Positions 1-28,062 of a stretch of 64,000 bases of DNA are shown here, piece by piece (positions within the stretch are counted from its first letter, which is position 1; every line of letters begins with the position of its first letter). The position numbers and the translations under genes are program-made. The stretch lies in assembly GCF_056746865.1 (NCBI RefSeq), contig NZ_CM163382.1; one strand, given 5' to 3'. The notes below the pieces were generated by a model. The model was not told the origin of the DNA. It searched no databases and saw only the letters and a program-made list of their open reading frames with translations.

Positions 1-398
1 GATGAATACGCGTTTACACCGTCCTCTTCAACAGTAATAAATTGCGGACGTAAATATCCTTCTTCAAATGCCAGAAAGCGGATCCCTTTAGACTTCGCCC
101 AACGTTTTGCTTCTTTGTGCAATGGACGGCAGTCACCAAAACAGAGAATGGTATCAAAGTCAAATTGCCGGTGGATATCTCGTAACCAACCAGGAAATTC
201 TTTCGGCGTTTGGTAATAAGCCAGATAGTGTCGATGACGGCAGTAAAAACGATCTCCTCCATTGAATACAACATTCACAGCGTTACGACCTAATGACTCT
301 AACCACTCGGCAACATCATTGAAGAAAGGTCCCATCGGTCCCTGCAATAGCAGATATTTTTTACCAGATAATAAAATGCTCAGAGCATTATTTTTCAT
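1..398 (-). CDS. kpsS: KpsS-like capsule polysaccharide export / beta-Kdo transferase, N-terminal ~132 codons only (ORF runs off the window start)
   Basis: Manual minus-strand translation from the ATG at 396-398 gives MKNNALSILLSGKKYLLLQGPMGPFF... and, at the window edge, ...GYLRPQFITVEEDGVNAYS with no stop before position 1. This matches the KpsS N-terminus as I recall it. The 86-aa track ORF at 14..274 is in a different frame. Confidence 0.75.
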   Translation of the reverse strand, partial: MKNNALSILLSGKKYLLLQGPMGPFFNDVAEWLESLGRNAVNVVFNGGDRFYCRHRHYLAYYQTPKEFPGWLRDIHRQFDFDTILCFGDCRPLHKEAKRWAKSKGIRFLAFEEGYLRPQFITVEEDGVNAYS

Positions 399-1560
399 AA
401 TAATCAAGTAATAGTTGACAATAAAATTTATCAGTTCAGTAAAATTATAAGAATATAATTAATTTCCGTTAACAGCGTATAACTCGTTTCTTTTTTCTGA
501 TAAAAAATCGAATTTGATTGATGTTTGAAGTAAATATTTCAAAGATTATCCAACCGCAATAGGCTCCAGCCGTATTGGGAGCATAAAATATTGGATAAGC
601 ACAGATCGCATCTGCGAATCTTAATCTACGCCCGTGACGTGGGGAAAATGGTATACACCAACATTATATCTGTATTAAATTCTAGATTTTCAAGTGTCTG
701 TCATTTCCTTTAAAAAAGAAAGCGTCGCCATAAACACTCTCTAAACAAAAAACCTATAAGAATAGAATTTATTATAGAACCAAGACGGTTTAGAAACACA
801 TCTATTACCAAACACTGAACATAACTCTAAACAACATTGAATAAAAATTAATGACTTTTAATATATTTCATATAGTGTATCCTCTGGAGAGCAATATATT
901 AATCGCTACAGAACGGTTATTAAAAAATATAGAACCAGTGATTGAATCAAAATGACCGATAAACAGTTCAGCAAAGTATAGCAACAGTGACATTTGTTAT
1001 AACAATGATTTTTACTACACGCAAAATATTAACATCACTAAAGTAATGAAAAAACATATTTATCTAAGCACAAAAATACAATATATAGCACATTATAAAA
1101 TAGAATTAAAACAAACCGTAACAACCATGATGCTATATTAATAGTTAAAATATTTTTAGTAAAAGATAAATTACCCCCATTAAAAATTCAAAACTGATGT
1201 TAGTTAACTCATAAGATCCTGCTAATTGATATAACTACGCCCCATGGGATAATGTTTTAATAACAGAACATTATCAGAAAACTGATCCCTCCAAATTTAA
1301 TTATTTTCTTGCTTATTTTATCAATAAAATAGAGTTCTGAAAAGTTATCTTATCTGAAAATATATTAGTGCCATATAGTAACAAAAAATATCAACCTTGC
1401 ATAATGATTTTAACTGTTCAAATAGTGCTCTACCCACATATCACGGGTGACATTTAATATATTTCCTTTGATACTCTACCAATAATAATTTATTGCTGAT
1501 TGTTTAATCACATAATCCCAAACTGCCCTGCAATAATATATTAACTCACAAAAAAAATCA

Positions 1561-3708
1561 TCAGGGTAAAAGTGAACGAAAAAGTCTCAAAGTTTGAGCA
1601 AAAGAAACTAACTTAATTCGCCAACGCTGCCACCACTTAACACCTGCCGTCGTAGCTTTTTTTTGAGTAGATAATAGATGAATTAATTGTTCAGGGCTGC
1701 ACCAAAGCCCTGACTTCCAATCTATATAACGCGGATATTTTACTAATGTAATATATGCTAATGCACTCAACGTTAATGTACGATGGCGTCTTTCTGATGG
1801 ATGCTTATCTTGTGTTAATCCCCAACCACTATAAAACGGCTGTCCCCATGTCGTAACCTTCACTCCTTGAACTAGTGCCTCAAATCCACTAAGCGAAGTC
1901 ATGGTATGTAACTCATTTATGTGTGGATATAGCGATTCCAGTCTAATATCAGATACTTGGCTATCAACACAGTGTGCTAAACAACGCGCCGAAATAGTAC
2001 CTTTTCGATTGCCAGATACCACATCCGGATGAGGTTTGAACAGAATATGTGCATTCGGTTTAGCTTCACGCACAGCCCACAACAACTGTTCATTGCTGCG
2101 GATAATCGGGCTACCACACAAAATGGATGCATCACCATCAACCTGACCAACCACTAGAATCAACTCACGTCCGTCGTTAGGGGGCTCATATTCTTGTGTA
2201 CTCCCCACATTGTATTTACTGACTCGTGATGATTGTAATTGCGCTAATAATGACTCTGCGCGTGCTTCTTCTTTCGCATCTAAAACGTACGTAGTGAGTA
2301 ACTGCTCAAGCTTACTCGGACGGCGGCTATCAAAATAGATTCCAACGGGGTCAATCGAGAGTGATGAAGGTCGACATAAATTAGACCCCAATCCGTTGGA
2401 GCGGATAAAACCATCTTCAATCCGGATCACTGATTGCAGTTCAGGATAACGGTTTCCCCACACCAACACCTGTTCATCATCTTTTAACTGTGAGGGCACA
2501 GTACGAACAAAACAAAGTTCATCTGCCAAATACGCACAAAATGTGCGTATAAAAGCACGCTTCCACAGAGAAAAACCAACGAGATAAAGACGACGCCAAG
2601 GTTTGGGCTCTACCTGCTGCTGAGCCAAAATCGCTACAACATCTTCTACCTCACAACGTTTTCCCAATATAGGATCTAAATAACGCGGATAACGGATCAA
2701 CGCCGCCGCAACTAAGCGGGGCAATGAAATAGATGAAACGCCTTCGGCTGACATTGCTTCTTCACGGCGTATACAACGTTTACTGTCATGCGTTAACCCC
2801 CACCCAGCATAAAATGGCATACCGAAGCAATATACAGGTTTGCCCAACAGCAACGCTTCAAAGCCAACCTGCGATGAAACTGTGTACACCGCATCCACCA
2901 TACGAATTATTCTATGCGGATGGCAAGGTTCACTCACCACCTCAACATCAGCCAGTCGAGGATCACGCCCCACTAAACGTGCTAACACGCCGCTTTTTTT
3001 GCTAAAGCGTGTATCTGGGTGTGTTCGCAACAATAGACGCGCATTAGGGTGATTACGGCGAGCCTCGACCACCATAGAAACAAAATCAGCTTCGCAAGCA
3101 AGAGCCCCAGAAATTGACAAGTCTCCCGCTACTTGATCCACAAGCAAAATACGCGGTCTTGGATCATCCAGTAAACGTGCTAAGTTTGAATGAGCCGTGA
3201 GGGTGAATAACTCAGGTTGTATATGTGTCGGTAAATCTAAAGAAGGCCCGTCAGTAGCACGGACAGAGCCATTAAATGTATGCTCAGTGCTATTGGTATA
3301 GCAGTTATACTTGGTGATTCCTAAACGCAAAATATCAGAGATCAGATGCTCAGCGCGCGCAAGTAAAGCCGTATCAACAGGTTCAATAATAAGCTGTTCT
3401 AATTGACTCGTCTGATGTGCATCATAATATATCCCCAGAGGGTCAGCAATAAGAGAAACCGCCTTTCCTCCTTTTGCTGGGTGCCCGATATAGCCAATAA
3501 AACCATCTTCAAGTTGCCAATAAGATATTCCTAACTCTTGAGCTTTCTGTTTAATCTGCTTAGTATTAGATTTTTTTCCCCAGCCAACTAAAACGTCATT
3601 TTTAGAAAAAGCCTCGTCTCCTTTCATATAAAGCAATGGGTGACCAAGCATAGGCTCAATATTATTTTTTCTGGCAAGAATCCCTTTCGATCCCGTATAT
3701 AAATACAT
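1561..3708 (-). CDS. kpsC: KpsC-like capsule biosynthesis protein (tandem beta-Kdo transferase domains)
   Basis: 715-aa ORF with an internally duplicated module (LEDGFIGYIG...DPLGIYYDAHQTSQLEQLI and IEDGFIRSNGLG...DPVGIYFDSRRPSKLEQLL), typical of KpsC. It lies next to kpsS. The true start codon is uncertain. Confidence 0.8.
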   Translation of the reverse strand: MYLYTGSKGILARKNNIEPMLGHPLLYMKGDEAFSKNDVLVGWGKKSNTKQIKQKAQELGISYWQLEDGFIGYIGHPAKGGKAVSLIADPLGIYYDAHQTSQLEQLIIEPVDTALLARAEHLISDILRLGITKYNCYTNSTEHTFNGSVRATDGPSLDLPTHIQPELFTLTAHSNLARLLDDPRPRILLVDQVAGDLSISGALACEADFVSMVVEARRNHPNARLLLRTHPDTRFSKKSGVLARLVGRDPRLADVEVVSEPCHPHRIIRMVDAVYTVSSQVGFEALLLGKPVYCFGMPFYAGWGLTHDSKRCIRREEAMSAEGVSSISLPRLVAAALIRYPRYLDPILGKRCEVEDVVAILAQQQVEPKPWRRLYLVGFSLWKRAFIRTFCAYLADELCFVRTVPSQLKDDEQVLVWGNRYPELQSVIRIEDGFIRSNGLGSNLCRPSSLSIDPVGIYFDSRRPSKLEQLLTTYVLDAKEEARAESLLAQLQSSRVSKYNVGSTQEYEPPNDGRELILVVGQVDGDASILCGSPIIRSNEQLLWAVREAKPNAHILFKPHPDVVSGNRKGTISARCLAHCVDSQVSDIRLESLYPHINELHTMTSLSGFEALVQGVKVTTWGQPFYSGWGLTQDKHPSERRHRTLTLSALAYITLVKYPRYIDWKSGLWCSPEQLIHLLSTQKKATTAGVKWWQRWRIKLVSFAQTLRLFRSLLP

Positions 3709-3757
3709 GTTGTCTCTGTGAACTGAAGATTCTCTACAATGGTGTATAAAGTGTGAT

Positions 3758-4309
3758 TTAGATGAACAGCTCTGCGCTCTCTAATGACTTTGCAATACTA
3801 TCTTTTGCTGAAGTGAGAATGTCCGCCTTTAACTCGGGCCACCTAATACCAATTGTAGGATCATTCCATGCAATGCCTCTATCACTGGCAGGGGCATAAT
3901 AATTAGTTGTTTTATACAAAAATTCGGCCGATTCAGTCAGTGTTACAAAACCATGGGCAAATCCTTCCGGAATCCATAACTGTCGTTTGTTTTCCCCTGA
4001 AAGATGAACGCCAACCCATTGTCCGAAGCTCGGTGAGCTTTTGCGAATATCTACCGCAACATCAAACACTTCACCGGCTACACAACGCACTAACTTGCCC
4101 TGGGCATGGGGAGGTAACTGATAGTGCAAGCCACGCAGTACCCCTTTAGAAGATTTTGAGTGATTATCCTGCACAAAGGTAACTGGATATCCTACAGCCT
4201 CTTCAAACAACTTGTGATTAAAACTCTCAAAGAAAAAACCACGCTCATCTCCAAATACTTTTGGCTCAAAAATAAGCACACCAGGAATTGCTGTCTTGAT
4301 TACATTCAT
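3758..4309 (-). CDS. rmlC: dTDP-4-dehydrorhamnose 3,5-epimerase
   Basis: 183 aa, N-terminus MNVIKTAIPGVLIFEPKVFGDERGFF is characteristic of RmlC/RfbC. Last gene of an rmlB-D-A-C run. Confidence 0.9.
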   Translation of the reverse strand: MNVIKTAIPGVLIFEPKVFGDERGFFFESFNHKLFEEAVGYPVTFVQDNHSKSSKGVLRGLHYQLPPHAQGKLVRCVAGEVFDVAVDIRKSSPSFGQWVGVHLSGENKRQLWIPEGFAHGFVTLTESAEFLYKTTNYYAPASDRGIAWNDPTIGIRWPELKADILTSAKDSIAKSLESAELFI

Positions 4310-6221: not shown

Positions 6222-7306
6222 CAGGTACGCTCCCTATAGTTTTGTTCAATCCAGGATTGGTAGGCACCACTCTTGACGTTGTTAATCCATTGTTGATTAT
6301 CCAGATACCACTGCACGGTCTTGCGAATACCAGACTCAAAAGTCTCCTCTGGCTGCCAATCCAACGCAGCGCTCATCTTGCAAGCATCAATCGCATATCG
6401 GCGATCGTGTCCGGGGCGATCCGCCACATAAGTAATTTGATCGCGATAAGAGCCAGCTTTCGGTACCATCTCGTCAAGCAGATCACAAATAGTATGTACT
6501 ACATCCAGGTTCTGCTTCTCGTTGTGACCGCCTATGTTATAAGTCTCCCCGACCAAGCCAGTGGTCACTACCTTGTAGAGTGCTCGTGCATGATCTTCCA
6601 CATACAACCAGTCACGAATTTGGTCACCTTTACCATAAACCGGCAGCGGCTTGCCATCCAGCGCATTGAGGATCACTAGCGGGATCAGCTTCTCGGGAAA
6701 GTGGTAAGGGCCATAGTTGTTGGAGCAGTTAGTGACAATGGTTGGCAGGCCGTACGTACGGTACCAAGCACGCACCAGATGATCGCTGGAAGCCTTGGAG
6801 GCAGAATAGGGACTGCTAGGAGCGTAGGAGGTAGTTTCGGTAAAGAGCGGCAATGCCTCACCGGAGGCTACTTCATCCGGATGGGGCAGATCGCCATATA
6901 CTTCATCGGTAGAAATATGGTGGAAGCGAAAGGCCGCCTTGCTCAACTCGCCCAGACTGCTCCAATAGGCGCGAGCCGCTTCCAGCAATGTATAGGTGCC
7001 TACGATATTGGTTTCGATAAAGTCGGCTGGCCCTGTGATAGAACGATCAACATGGCTTTCAGCAGCCAGATGCATCACGGCATCTGGCTGGTGCAGAGCA
7101 AACACCCGATCCAACTCAGCACGATTACAGATATCAACTTGTTCAAACGAATAACGCTCACTTGACGATACACTGGCCAAAGATTCCAAATTGCCAGCAT
7201 AGGTGAGTTTATCCAGATTGATAACGGAGTCTCCAGTATCACTAATGATATGACGCACCACGGCAGAGCCGATAAAACCAGCACCGCCAGTAACGAGAAT
7301 CTTCAT
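6221..7306 (-). CDS. rmlB: dTDP-glucose 4,6-dehydratase
   Basis: 361 aa, [21 protein letters not shown]ossmann motif plus extended-SDR body. First gene of the rml run. Confidence 0.92.
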
Positions 7307-8030
7307 ATATTTCGCTCTCTTATTTTACAATTAATAGCTATTAAAAATAAACTTGTTGACTCCGATATATTAGAAATATCGGGATACCGAACTAAATATT
7401 TTTATATGCTTTTGCCAAGCAGACTCTATATCCACCCTGTATCACTATGCTTTCTGGCATACAATATCCCATCATTGACACAATGATAAACATATAAATA
7501 AAGAAAATTTTAAATCATATAACCAAATTACTTTCACTTTATTATCAATAAGTATTTTGATAAGAATACCTATACCACAGGGAGCCCCCTGAAACATAAT
7601 ATTAGCGAAGAATGATAACTGATAGTTACCATCTTAGAGATAAAAACTTATTTGTGTGGCGGGCATGACATGCCAGAGAATAAAATAGACTCAAAAAAAA
7701 TCACTAAGGGAGTTATTTGCAGCAAGAGAATTTCTTAGTCACTTGATTCAAAACAATCAAATTAAAAAGCGTTTTGATTATTAGCCTTATTTTATATATT
7801 GTGTCGTTACAGATAAAGTAAAAAACACATAATGGCATTTTCGGTTGACATATGTATTAACATATATTGCTTTATCATATAACCATATTTCAATTCAACT
7901 TACACTCTCAAGTTAATTGAAGCAGGCAATGCCTAATATATTTTTGCATCATAACCTATGATTAATATTAAAACACCAATCAGTTCGATTTTTAAACATT
8001 CAATAGCACCAATTAAATAAAAATATCTTT

Positions 8031-9062
8031 TTACTCGACACCTACAATTTTACAAGCATATTTTTTAGCATTGAACGCCAACTCGCTACGTTTATGATCT
8101 GCACTAACAAGTAATGAAAGAGCTTTTATCCATATATGTGGGTCATTCTCCAGCAAGATTCCATTTACATTTTGTTCAATGAAGTCACTATATGGTACAC
8201 AATTACTATATAAACCTACAGCCCCCATTCTGACAAAATCATAAAATTTTACGGGGCCGCGAGCCGAATTAAAGTCAGAGTCAAGTAATGGTGCTAACCC
8301 GATATCCAGATGATGAGTCTTGGTATACGCAAGATAATTTTGCCAACTCATCGGATGCAGTACTGAAACTCTTGGTAGGTCACGATAATATTTATAAATA
8401 TCATGCTCGCCAAAAATTTCAAAGCTGGCACGGGGACATTCTCCCAATACCCCCTCTACGATTTGTCTCAACCAATATTTTTCTTCCCGATGAGAACTTG
8501 AGCCATGATAAGCGATTTTTACTGATCGATGTGTTTCAATGAGTGCCAGTGACGGTTTAGCAGAAACAATCTCCGGGTTAAGATGTGCATATTTATTAGC
8601 CAAATAGGCAGTTGAAACCCAAATGTTATCACAATATTGCGTAATCCATCGATGCTGAGCCGCCGACCTCCTTATTATCTTGGTACGATACTCTTTTGGT
8701 AACGTAGATAGTGCAGTCGGGTCAAACAGGTCGTCATCCATAAAATAAACAATTCGAGAAAACCTGTCGTTATATCTTTCTATGTGCTGTTGCCATTTTG
8801 GGGAGATGAATCTAATGACGACAAGGGCAGATCCTCTAGGAATAAATATATCAGTGGATGCTAATGTGTCGATAAAATGACATTCTGCATCAGGAAACCG
8901 ACTTATAATAGCCGATTCAAAATAGGCTAATGTAGGTGATTTTCCCTCATGTAATATAAACAATCGTTCAAAGTTAATCTCAGAGCTTTGCTGACTTCTA
9001 TAACTCTGTTTATTTAATTTACGATAAGGCTTAAATAGTTTCCTGCGAATTAATTCATCCAT
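8031..9062 (-). CDS. hypothetical capsule region-2 protein, possible glycosyltransferase
   Basis: 343-aa ORF inside the serotype region, overlapping the upstream gene by 13 nt. No motif I can name with confidence. Confidence 0.4.
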   Translation of the reverse strand: MDELIRRKLFKPYRKLNKQSYRSQQSSEINFERLFILHEGKSPTLAYFESAIISRFPDAECHFIDTLASTDIFIPRGSALVVIRFISPKWQQHIERYNDRFSRIVYFMDDDLFDPTALSTLPKEYRTKIIRRSAAQHRWITQYCDNIWVSTAYLANKYAHLNPEIVSAKPSLALIETHRSVKIAYHGSSSHREEKYWLRQIVEGVLGECPRASFEIFGEHDIYKYYRDLPRVSVLHPMSWQNYLAYTKTHHLDIGLAPLLDSDFNSARGPVKFYDFVRMGAVGLYSNCVPYSDFIEQNVNGILLENDPHIWIKALSLLVSADHKRSELAFNAKKYACKIVGVE

Positions 9063-26635: not shown

Positions 26636-27564
26636 TTTAAAACGTTATCCAAAAGTTGATAGTATGTAAAACAATTACCTTCTATTATTGATACTCTGAC
26701 AGATATCAATAATAGCCCATAAATATAAGATATTTAAAATTATAACCACACAAATTAATCATAGATGTTGCTAGTATAAGATTGACTTTAGTCAACTGGT
26801 GTTTACATCATCTGTTTATAACTAATTACGAATATATCCTTTATCTTTTGGATATGTACTACATATGCAACACACATCCCTAAAAATATTATTTTTATGG
26901 CCCCGTATATTGCTATCTTTTTTTTATAAAATTTAATAATAACAACCATATGGAAGAGAAAATCCCTCTTATACATAAAGAGGGATCAATTAAATAAATT
27001 TGTTTTGTAATGACTCAGTAAGGCATAGACGTTTTCATAAATTCTTAAATTACTATCCCCAAAAATCTAAGTCCTGAAAAACTTTAACACTCTAATATTT
27101 TCATGAGCCGTTCAGCACACCCTCAACTTCGATAAAAAATGCTAACTAGTAAATAATTGTCGCAATAATAATAGTCGTACTTTATCAATAACAGATAAAC
27201 AAAAATAATAAAAAAGAGGGGAGATACACTTGCGATAGAATGGCGGCTTCTTGCCCCCCTTTGCCCGGTCCTGACTAGCATGGCTGGAGTCAGTGTCAGG
27301 CCACGACCATGCTCATCATGGAAGCAGCTTTTGTAGTACACTTCGCAGCTTATTTTCCTGGAACGAAATGTCTGGCATCGTGGTGCATAACATAACCCCC
27401 AATGCCCAGCAGATGCACAGAAGGTTCTAGAATCGCCCACTGATATCCCATACAAAATTTACCAAAACGTGTTCGTATTTCTCGTATAAATAATGTCTCT
27501 ATGGTGACGTTCTAGACTTCAAACCCACTTTTTGAATTTGATGATGTGCTCCTAATCTCTTCAG

Positions 27565-27604
27565 GAATGCTACCGCCCCTGGCTTTACAGCTACCAATAC
27601 ACTG
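27565..27604 (-). promoter_or_regulatory. JUMPstart element containing an ops (GGCGGTAG) site, RfaH-dependent antitermination signal for the kps transcript
   Basis: Minus-strand sequence cagtgtattggtagctgtaaagccaggggcggtagcattc closely matches the 39-bp JUMPstart consensus (CAGTG..TGGTAGCTGT.AAGCCAGGGGCGGTAGC). Correct orientation, ~1.3 kb upstream of kpsD. Confidence 0.75.
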
Positions 27605-28062
27605 GAGGTATACTTATCTGCAACTGGATGAACTAGATATACTTGAGCAAACATTTCATAAGCTCGACGAACAGTTTTCGTAGAAATTATTTTCCTTATT
27701 TAAAATTCACTTATTGATTATCTCTAGGAATTTTACTAATTTCCAAGTCACATAAAATACAGATCACACAAGAATTATCCTATATGCTTTAACCTATCAA
27801 TTATTACTCAATGATTCATTACAACTATTAATAATCATAATGCGTCAAAACACTTAAGCAACTTTACAGTCTGAGAAAGGTGTCGATTCACAAGGACTGC
27901 ATAGTGAAAAACGAATTCCTACAGTATTATCGAACATTCCGTGGTGGTCTGGAGGGAGATAACCCTTGCTACATCGGAACTCAGCCCGGTGAGCGGGTTT
28001 GACAGTTCCGCACTCACCTTTGGGCTAAGGTTATCAGGTGGGGTTTAAGGGGATGGCAATAC

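Follow-up and report, generated by a model that had tools for sequence, protein, structure and literature searches.

Capsule loci of groups 2 and 3 and the locus analysed

The enzyme KpsS commits phosphatidylglycerol to capsule assembly. The PR1 and PR3 regions of group-2 capsule clusters are thermoregulated by H-NS and SlyA and carry mapped promoters and mapped H-NS sites upstream of the operons. In group 2, a 1.3-kb kpsS RNA arises by processing of the region 1 transcript (PMC8960920). Regulation of group 3 capsules has been called poorly understood in published work, and these capsules "are not temperature-dependent" (PMC13410964). The K96 capsule genes were described as an apparent single operon, and the capsule requires RfaH, OxyR and a promoter approximately 1.6 kb upstream of kpsD; an ops element was also found (PMC13410964). 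In the same study, kpsS was needed for the K96 capsule, with insertions abolishing it in strain M12, which has the same 1162-bp gap between kpsC and kpsS as reported here, at M12 coordinates 1169485-1170646; the TnSeq supplement of that study gives gene-level data. A kpsM' pseudogene was also reported for K96 together with the ops element, and deletion of kpsM' in strain M12 left the capsule intact (PMC13410964). The kpsS of subgroup 3A has been described as derived from the 2A lineage (Hong, Cunneen and Reeves 2019, as cited in PMC13171606).

The window analysed here, i.e. the whole stretch of 64,000 nucleotides, carries, on the minus strand, a group 3 capsule locus of E. coli belonging to subgroup 3A. 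Its main features were as follows:

1-398, minus strand: 5' part of kpsS, group-2 type (93% protein identity), the functional copy, extending beyond the window
399-1560: spacer between kpsC and kpsS, 1162 bp, 28.1% GC, both flanking genes on the minus strand
1561-3708, minus strand: kpsC, subgroup 3A type, intact open reading frame of 715 aa
7306-3758, minus strand: rmlBDAC, between the serotype-specific genes and kpsC
26237-21747, minus strand: kpsD, kpsM, kpsT and kpsE in the order transcribed, followed by the serotype-specific genes
27570-27577, minus strand: ops element GGCGGTAG, found by sequence match upstream of kpsD

The 3A KpsC showed 66-67% identity to KpsC of subgroup 3B (Citrobacter plasmid) and of Aeromonas, and 36.6% identity to that of group 2. 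The portion of KpsS within the window (132 aa) was 93% identical to group-2 KpsS, while the full protein, taken from an identical locus, showed 92.8%, 58.9% and 38.5% identity to group 2, 3B and Aeromonas, respectively. With 92.8% identity to group 2 for KpsS and 36.6% for KpsC, the two proteins disagree on ancestry. The same incongruence is known from the mosaic 3A loci (Hong 2019, as cited in PMC13171606), and in the present locus the group-2 homology extends upstream of kpsS as well.

At the other end of the locus, the region 27357-28062 on the minus strand was approximately 86% identical to group-2 DNA upstream of and into kpsM; group-2 genomes were among the approximately 2000 matching in this comparison, in which kpsM was annotated as an ABC transporter permease. 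This piece agrees with the kpsM' pseudogene reported for K96 (PMC13410964). Since group-2 pieces lie at both ends, the locus can be described as a group 3 core with group-2 ends.

The gap between kpsC and kpsS and its contents

The spacer is bounded by the kpsC stop codon (TGA, 1563-1561) and the kpsS start codon (ATG, 398-396), both on the minus strand. Its GC content was 28.1%, that of kpsC 43.9% and that of the part of kpsS in the window 42.0%, and values of 25-31% persisted along more than 1 kb of the spacer. The longest open reading frame in any frame was 41 aa, with 19 to 35 stop codons per frame, so the tract is indeed the very AT-rich spacer of about 1.2 kb, free of reading frames of at least 60 aa, that the preliminary description had reported. 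Its poverty in reading frames follows from the composition, because DNA as AT-rich as this yields few of them by chance. The gap itself is not a product of chance. A survey of 5426 complete E. coli genomes found 101 with a 3A-type kpsC, and the spacer was present in all 101, unannotated in every one, as a single chromosomal copy per genome. The distance from kpsC to kpsS was 34 nt in group-2 loci, and the kpsC stop lay 7 to 90 nt from the kpsS start in 3B-like, Aeromonas, Leclercia and Pluralibacter loci. The preliminary description had held that the two genes are normally adjacent and had proposed comparing other group 3 loci at this junction; the comparison agrees with it, with the gap in 101/101 3A loci and adjacent genes in the 3B-like plasmid loci.

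Four divergent 3A haplotypes were compared with the reference copy (five haplotypes in all). The spacer differed by 0.4-2.8% substitutions and several indels, while kpsC and kpsS differed by 0.05-0.4% substitutions and had no indels. Similarly, at least 99% identity to the window was retained by kpsC in 100 of the 101 genomes and by the spacer in 65. The spacer thus evolves several-fold faster than its flanking genes, which is the pattern of unconstrained DNA.

The spacer consisted of the following segments:

399-430, minus strand: leader of kpsS, of group-2 type, which aligns with the 34 nt between kpsC and kpsS in group 2
431-640, minus strand: remains of a group-2 kpsC 3' end (last approximately 70 codons), frame broken by seven indels, found by DNA alignment
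641-1095, no strand assigned: approximately 455 bp of AT-rich DNA with no match in the searches
1096-1278, minus strand: central piece of a kpsS relic, SDNVLLLKHYPMGRSYIN*QDLMS*LTSVLNF...VVTVCFNSIL, with in-frame stops, found with the KpsS HMM
1299-1472, minus strand: possible additional piece of the kpsS relic, lying in a different frame, LIFFVTIWH*YIFR*DNFSEL, KpsS profile positions 188-245, -1.5 bits
1483-1545, minus strand: N-terminal piece of the kpsS relic, VNILLQGSLGLCD*TISNKL against MNILLLQGPLGPFF in the relatives, KpsS profile positions 4-22, weak when taken alone
1546-1560, minus strand: junction from the kpsC stop to the first codon of the relic, TGA TTT TTT TTG TGA, read from the sequence

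The kpsC relic was found next to kpsS by several DNA comparisons. A sensitive search with the spacer alone matched 450-601 to the 3' end of group-2 kpsC in 89 genomes (70.7% identity over 152 nt, E 1e-6), and the matched kpsC lies immediately 5' of kpsS; the same search also returned the 101 full-length copies of the spacer. When positions 1-1000 were used as the blastn query, 1752 genomes matched, and the alignment ran unbroken from kpsS to 601 at approximately 81% identity in all 36 of the group-2 matches listed. Global alignment with a group-2 locus revealed homology from approximately -240 to approximately +1150 relative to the kpsS ATG and none outside these limits, and the upstream limit corresponds to about 638 in the window. 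The relic showed 66.9% identity to group 2 over 239 aligned nucleotides, and kpsS showed 88.5% nucleotide identity and 72.8% at third codon positions; the relic has therefore diverged at least as far as the third codon positions of kpsS. Among the differences, 43 were GC in group 2 and AT in 3A, and 21 were the reverse. The seven indels included a 12-nt deletion, several were not multiples of three, and stop codons were present in the aligned frame. A tblastn search with residues 579-669 of group-2 KpsC gave E 7e-4 for the relic, and the KpsC HMM gave no signal over the whole spacer. The relic is detectable by DNA, and against group 2 only, because the C-terminal tail of KpsC is lineage-specific. 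The continuous homology, together with the discordant ancestry of the flanking proteins, indicates that 431-640 is a decayed piece of group-2 kpsC that came with the present kpsS.

As a separate observation on the downstream side, the group-2 homology of the 3A kpsS ended at approximately nucleotide 1150 of the gene, and the last 20 or so residues of the proteins were unrelated (L001, 18780-18850). The end of homology near this nucleotide places the right-hand junction of the imported segment inside kpsS.

The AT-rich core was compared with a profile of KpsS built from 14 proteins encoded beside kpsC in the fetched loci, which was run against the six-frame translation of 646-1563 with all filters off. 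The profile scored 14.8 bits (E 3.5e-6 over six frames), and the only frame to score was the one on the sense strand that follows on from the kpsC stop. The best of 2000 dinucleotide-preserving shuffles reached 6.9 bits (mean -1.2). Profile positions 4-22 aligned to 1539-1483 of the window (ILLQGSLGLCD) and positions 255-294 to 1278-1159 (SDNVLLLKHYPMGRSYIN*QDLMS*L). A profile of the Aeromonas/Pluralibacter type of KpsS scored 18.1 bits (E 3e-7, positions 254-314, window 1278-1096), and one of the group-2/3B type scored 1.4 bits; this difference indicates that the relic is not a copy of the present kpsS but belongs to the type that partners the relatives of the 3A kpsC. When the central fragment was searched with all 18,950 NCBIfam models, the single match was the KpsS equivalog NF050054 (E 0.027).

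The arrangement of the relic pointed to the same type. It starts with VNILLQG 15 nt past the kpsC stop, at the very place where the relatives start kpsS, and the arrangement is that of MNILLLQGPLGPFF in Aeromonas and Pluralibacter. Its N-terminus is short, with a stop codon directly upstream and no space for the 15-residue extension of group-2/3B KpsS. The frame contained 32 stop codons, some of them within the matched block, and profile positions 23-187 were missing or compressed to approximately 10 nt. Coverage is partial, with positions 4-22 and 254-314 supported and 188-245 doubtful, and the signal rests mainly on one block of approximately 60 codons, the N-terminal and frame-shifted pieces being individually insignificant. 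The frame-shifted piece is collinear and suggests that approximately 165 codons (about 0.5 kb, positions 23-187) were deleted after the N-terminus. Profile searches of the spacer gave no detectable trace of the C-terminal third of kpsS. With the kpsS of 3B and Aeromonas as queries, tblastn and blastn returned short KpsS motifs only, and nucleotide comparison with the spacer returned nothing. A scan of one genome per KpsC-bearing species found no intact ancestral 3A-like locus, the best relative of KpsC being 68% identical.

The middle stretch (641-1095) had no match to the KpsS and KpsC HMMs, NCBIfam, Pfam, Rfam, plasmids or other E. coli DNA. NCBIfam searches with nine fragments spanning 631-1170 gave nothing credible, and Pfam yielded no relevant family for any of the three sense frames or for shorter pieces; one match to a DUF (E 0.11) was a chance hit. 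Probably, this stretch holds what is left of the 3' part of the kpsS relic after complete decay, filler DNA from the recombination junction, or both.

Origin of the gap and alternative readings

The favoured reading of the spacer is a scar of recombination that consists of two pseudogene relics, not a purpose-built element, and a probability of roughly 0.8 was assigned to it. The two homologies with their places and sense orientation, the disrupted frames, the fast evolution of the spacer and its occurrence beside every 3A kpsC are observed, and the order of events at the kpsC-kpsS junction was inferred from them. In the ancestral 3A locus, kpsC would have stood immediately before a kpsS of its own, of the type with a short N-terminus as in Aeromonas and Pluralibacter. 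A group-2 segment of approximately 1.4 kb, made up of the last 240 bp or so of kpsC and of kpsS to approximately nucleotide 1150, would then have been joined downstream, and the imported kpsS would have taken over the function of KpsS. The old kpsS would have lost approximately 0.5 kb internally and then decayed by AT-biased substitution, stop codons and frameshifts. The imported kpsC fragment would have decayed too, and 1162 bp of untranslated DNA with 28% GC would have been inherited by every 3A locus.

The low GC content is at least partly the result of AT-biased decay. However, a gene of approximately 45-55% GC would not readily reach 27% GC by simple decay, so the ancestral gene was already AT-rich or other forces acted. 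Also counting against the reading as a scar are the concentration of the KpsS signal in mainly one block, the failure to find an intact ancestral version in the genomes searched, and the approximately 455 bp at 641-1095 with no detectable homology, which leave room for a different origin of part of the tract. The left recombination junction is placed at approximately 640. On this reading, the assembly of the locus is evidenced physically, an Aeromonas-like kpsC-kpsS pair having later been patched with a group-2 kpsS, and the relics account for the annotation blank that is constant in subgroup 3A loci, whose carriers include emerging ExPEC lineages.

Other explanations for parts of the tract were weighed against the relics. 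That the core (641-1545) is foreign filler, such as degraded insertion-sequence or other mobile DNA, with KpsS-like matches by chance, would fit the stretch with no homology and a composition sharply unlike that of the flanking genes. It is nonetheless very improbable: the spacer showed no terminal inverted repeats, direct-repeat flanks, target duplication or transposase remnant and no meaningful direct, inverted or tandem repeats. No similarity was found in E. coli genomes beyond the kps locus, and the matches in a plasmid collection were limited to a single group-2 kpsC and a chromosome misfiled there. The KpsS signal, moreover, was far above the shuffles, lay on the right strand and in the right place, and was the sole family found among the NCBIfam models. 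The preliminary description had offered a small RNA or an eroded gene as what the tract might hide; the eroded gene was borne out, as two relics, and the small RNA was not. A small regulatory or other structured RNA could be argued from the length of the non-coding tract and its retention in all 3A loci, with some stretches of 80-150 nt invariant among the five haplotypes, but it was considered highly improbable, given that an Rfam scan of 1-4000 at E<=1 returned no match, the folds tested in the spacer were not more stable than shuffles (z from 0 to -1.9), the only pairs of promoter-like and terminator-like sites were at chance level, and the spacer carries indels and evolves faster than its neighbours. 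Least credible of all was one or more small proteins encoded in the gap. Eight open reading frames of 30-41 aa overlap it and five lie entirely within it, but such frames are expected by chance, matched no family in Pfam or NCBIfam, had substitutions and indels scattered through them, and were annotated in none of the 101 genomes.

It was also asked of the evidence whether the spacer now acts as a regulatory module, coated by H-NS, in which Rho or a hairpin stops the operon transcript and kpsS is transcribed from a promoter of its own. Two sites on the minus strand bear on this:

472-444, minus strand: promoter-like site within the kpsC relic, -35 TTAACG (472-467), 17-nt spacing, -10 TATAAT (449-444)
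717-742, minus strand: weak hairpin resembling a terminator, with U6 after it on the sense strand, found by consensus scan

The candidate promoter lies 46 nt 5' of the kpsS ATG with 10 of 12 consensus matches and a perfect -10 hexamer, at the position of which the group-2 homologue has GCAAGGT; both hexamers were invariant in the five haplotypes, and the hairpin lies upstream of it. Conservation against group 2 was also slightly higher in the block 449-505 than elsewhere in the kpsC relic, and low GC persists over more than 1 kb. A module of this kind would separate the expression of KpsS, which is the Kdo transferase of the initiation step, from that of the other operon genes. Against these points stand the controls, and the module was judged unlikely. 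Promoter-like sites were fewer in the spacer than expected from shuffles (7 against 10.6), and a site as good as the candidate occurred anywhere on the strand in 56% of shuffles and at 20-120 nt from the ATG in 7%. The hairpin (742-717, -13.2 kcal/mol, z -1.9) was matched in stability by 9 of 200 shuffles, and such sites were within the shuffle expectation. The conservation of the block had a permutation p of 0.05-0.12, and variants within 3A and a 3-nt deletion fall inside it. The high-affinity H-NS motif TCGATAAATT was absent from the spacer within one mismatch, although absence of the motif is not decisive for H-NS occupancy. Group 3 capsules, finally, are described as not temperature-dependent and the genes as an apparent single operon (PMC13410964). 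The same report conflicts with the earlier suggestion of a temperature-regulated tract, for which low GC was the sole basis. Low GC is not necessarily a regulatory signal, since decay can produce it.

An antisense promoter-like site was also noted at 1226-1253 (plus strand), with 10 of 12 matches and an extended -10 TG, pointing at kpsC. Spurious promoters of this kind are typical of AT-rich DNA.

Compared with the described systems, the reading of the spacer as a scar goes beyond the mosaic proposal for 3A loci (Hong 2019, as cited in PMC13171606) by adding a physical trace in the gap, namely the remains of a group-2 kpsC 3' end and of a displaced kpsS like that of Aeromonas. The kpsM' fragment upstream of kpsD (PMC13410964) is likewise group-2-derived and non-functional, at the opposite end of the locus, but it lies in a 5' untranslated leader beside the promoter and ops element, whereas the spacer relics are intra-operonic, between two essential genes. 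The spacer resembles PR1 and PR3 in being AT-rich DNA within a horizontally acquired capsule locus; unlike them, it is intra-operonic pseudogene DNA, in a capsule group that is not temperature-dependent (PMC13410964). The literature searched, which comprised work other than Clarke 1999 and Hong 2019, yielded no mention of the kpsC-kpsS gap or of either relic. Both the derivation of the 3A kpsS from group 2 and the kpsM' fragment at the far end of the locus have already been published, and pseudogene relics at recombination junctions are well known; the relics in the spacer are a new, or at least unannotated, instance.

Expression of kpsS and further observations

As the essential gene at the end of the operon, kpsS lies behind 1.16 kb of untranslated sequence. 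The reports of a single operon and of RfaH with the ops element make RfaH-assisted read-through the most likely route, and on balance kpsS is probably expressed from the single kps operon transcript. RfaH loaded at the ops element 26 kb upstream could carry RNA polymerase across the untranslated spacer, and no further ops element was found inside the spacer. The sense RNA of the spacer contained 11.8% C, 16.4% G and 40.6% U. By the rules for rut sites, RNA that is C-poor and U-rich is a poor substrate for Rho loading, and the spacer RNA would be such a substrate.

Expression from the local promoter at 472-444 is a possible alternative to read-through, suggested by the match to the consensus. 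With RfaH available, kpsS may not need the promoter of its own that the preliminary description called for, and consensus matches as good as this one are common in DNA of such composition. A further proposal, rather doubtful, is that the relic tract, untranslated, AT-rich and H-NS-prone, was co-opted as an intra-operonic checkpoint, which would make kpsS strictly dependent on RfaH anti-termination or on the new promoter in the kpsC relic; in that case the start of capsule synthesis would be adjusted independently of export and polymerisation.

Under read-through, the 5' end of the kpsS message might be formed in the group-2-derived leader by processing as in group 2. The 240 bp 5' of kpsS in the window are homologous to the kpsC-kpsS junction of group-2 region 1 (PMC8960920) but are 67% identical and no longer coding, and transcript processing is known for group 2. 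By analogy, the element that forms the group-2 kpsS message may have been imported with the junction.

Further observations were made on kpsS and on the 3A loci. KpsS fell into two deep types that do not track KpsC (L004, 8094-9338, and L011, 6090-7334, against L005-L017). KpsS of 3B (Citrobacter and Leclercia) was approximately 59% identical to group-2 KpsS and approximately 38% to that of Aeromonas, while KpsC of 3B and of Aeromonas were both approximately 66% identical to the 3A protein. From these sequences, kpsS may have been exchanged more than once.

The 3A strain NZ_CP043295.1 had an IS5 inserted in kpsC, a natural capsule-inactivating event. The record NZ_CP141089.1, a 4.9-Mb E. coli sequence filed as a plasmid, is evidently a chromosome and showed the same order of kpsC, spacer and kpsS. 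A second gap was seen at 7307-8030, where 724 bp of non-coding DNA with approximately 29-30% GC separate rmlB (start at 7306) from a region-2 gene (8031-9062). This gap may be another recombination junction or a decayed gene, and a second 3A strain, whose region 2 differs, has a gap of the same size (L001, 26909-27632).
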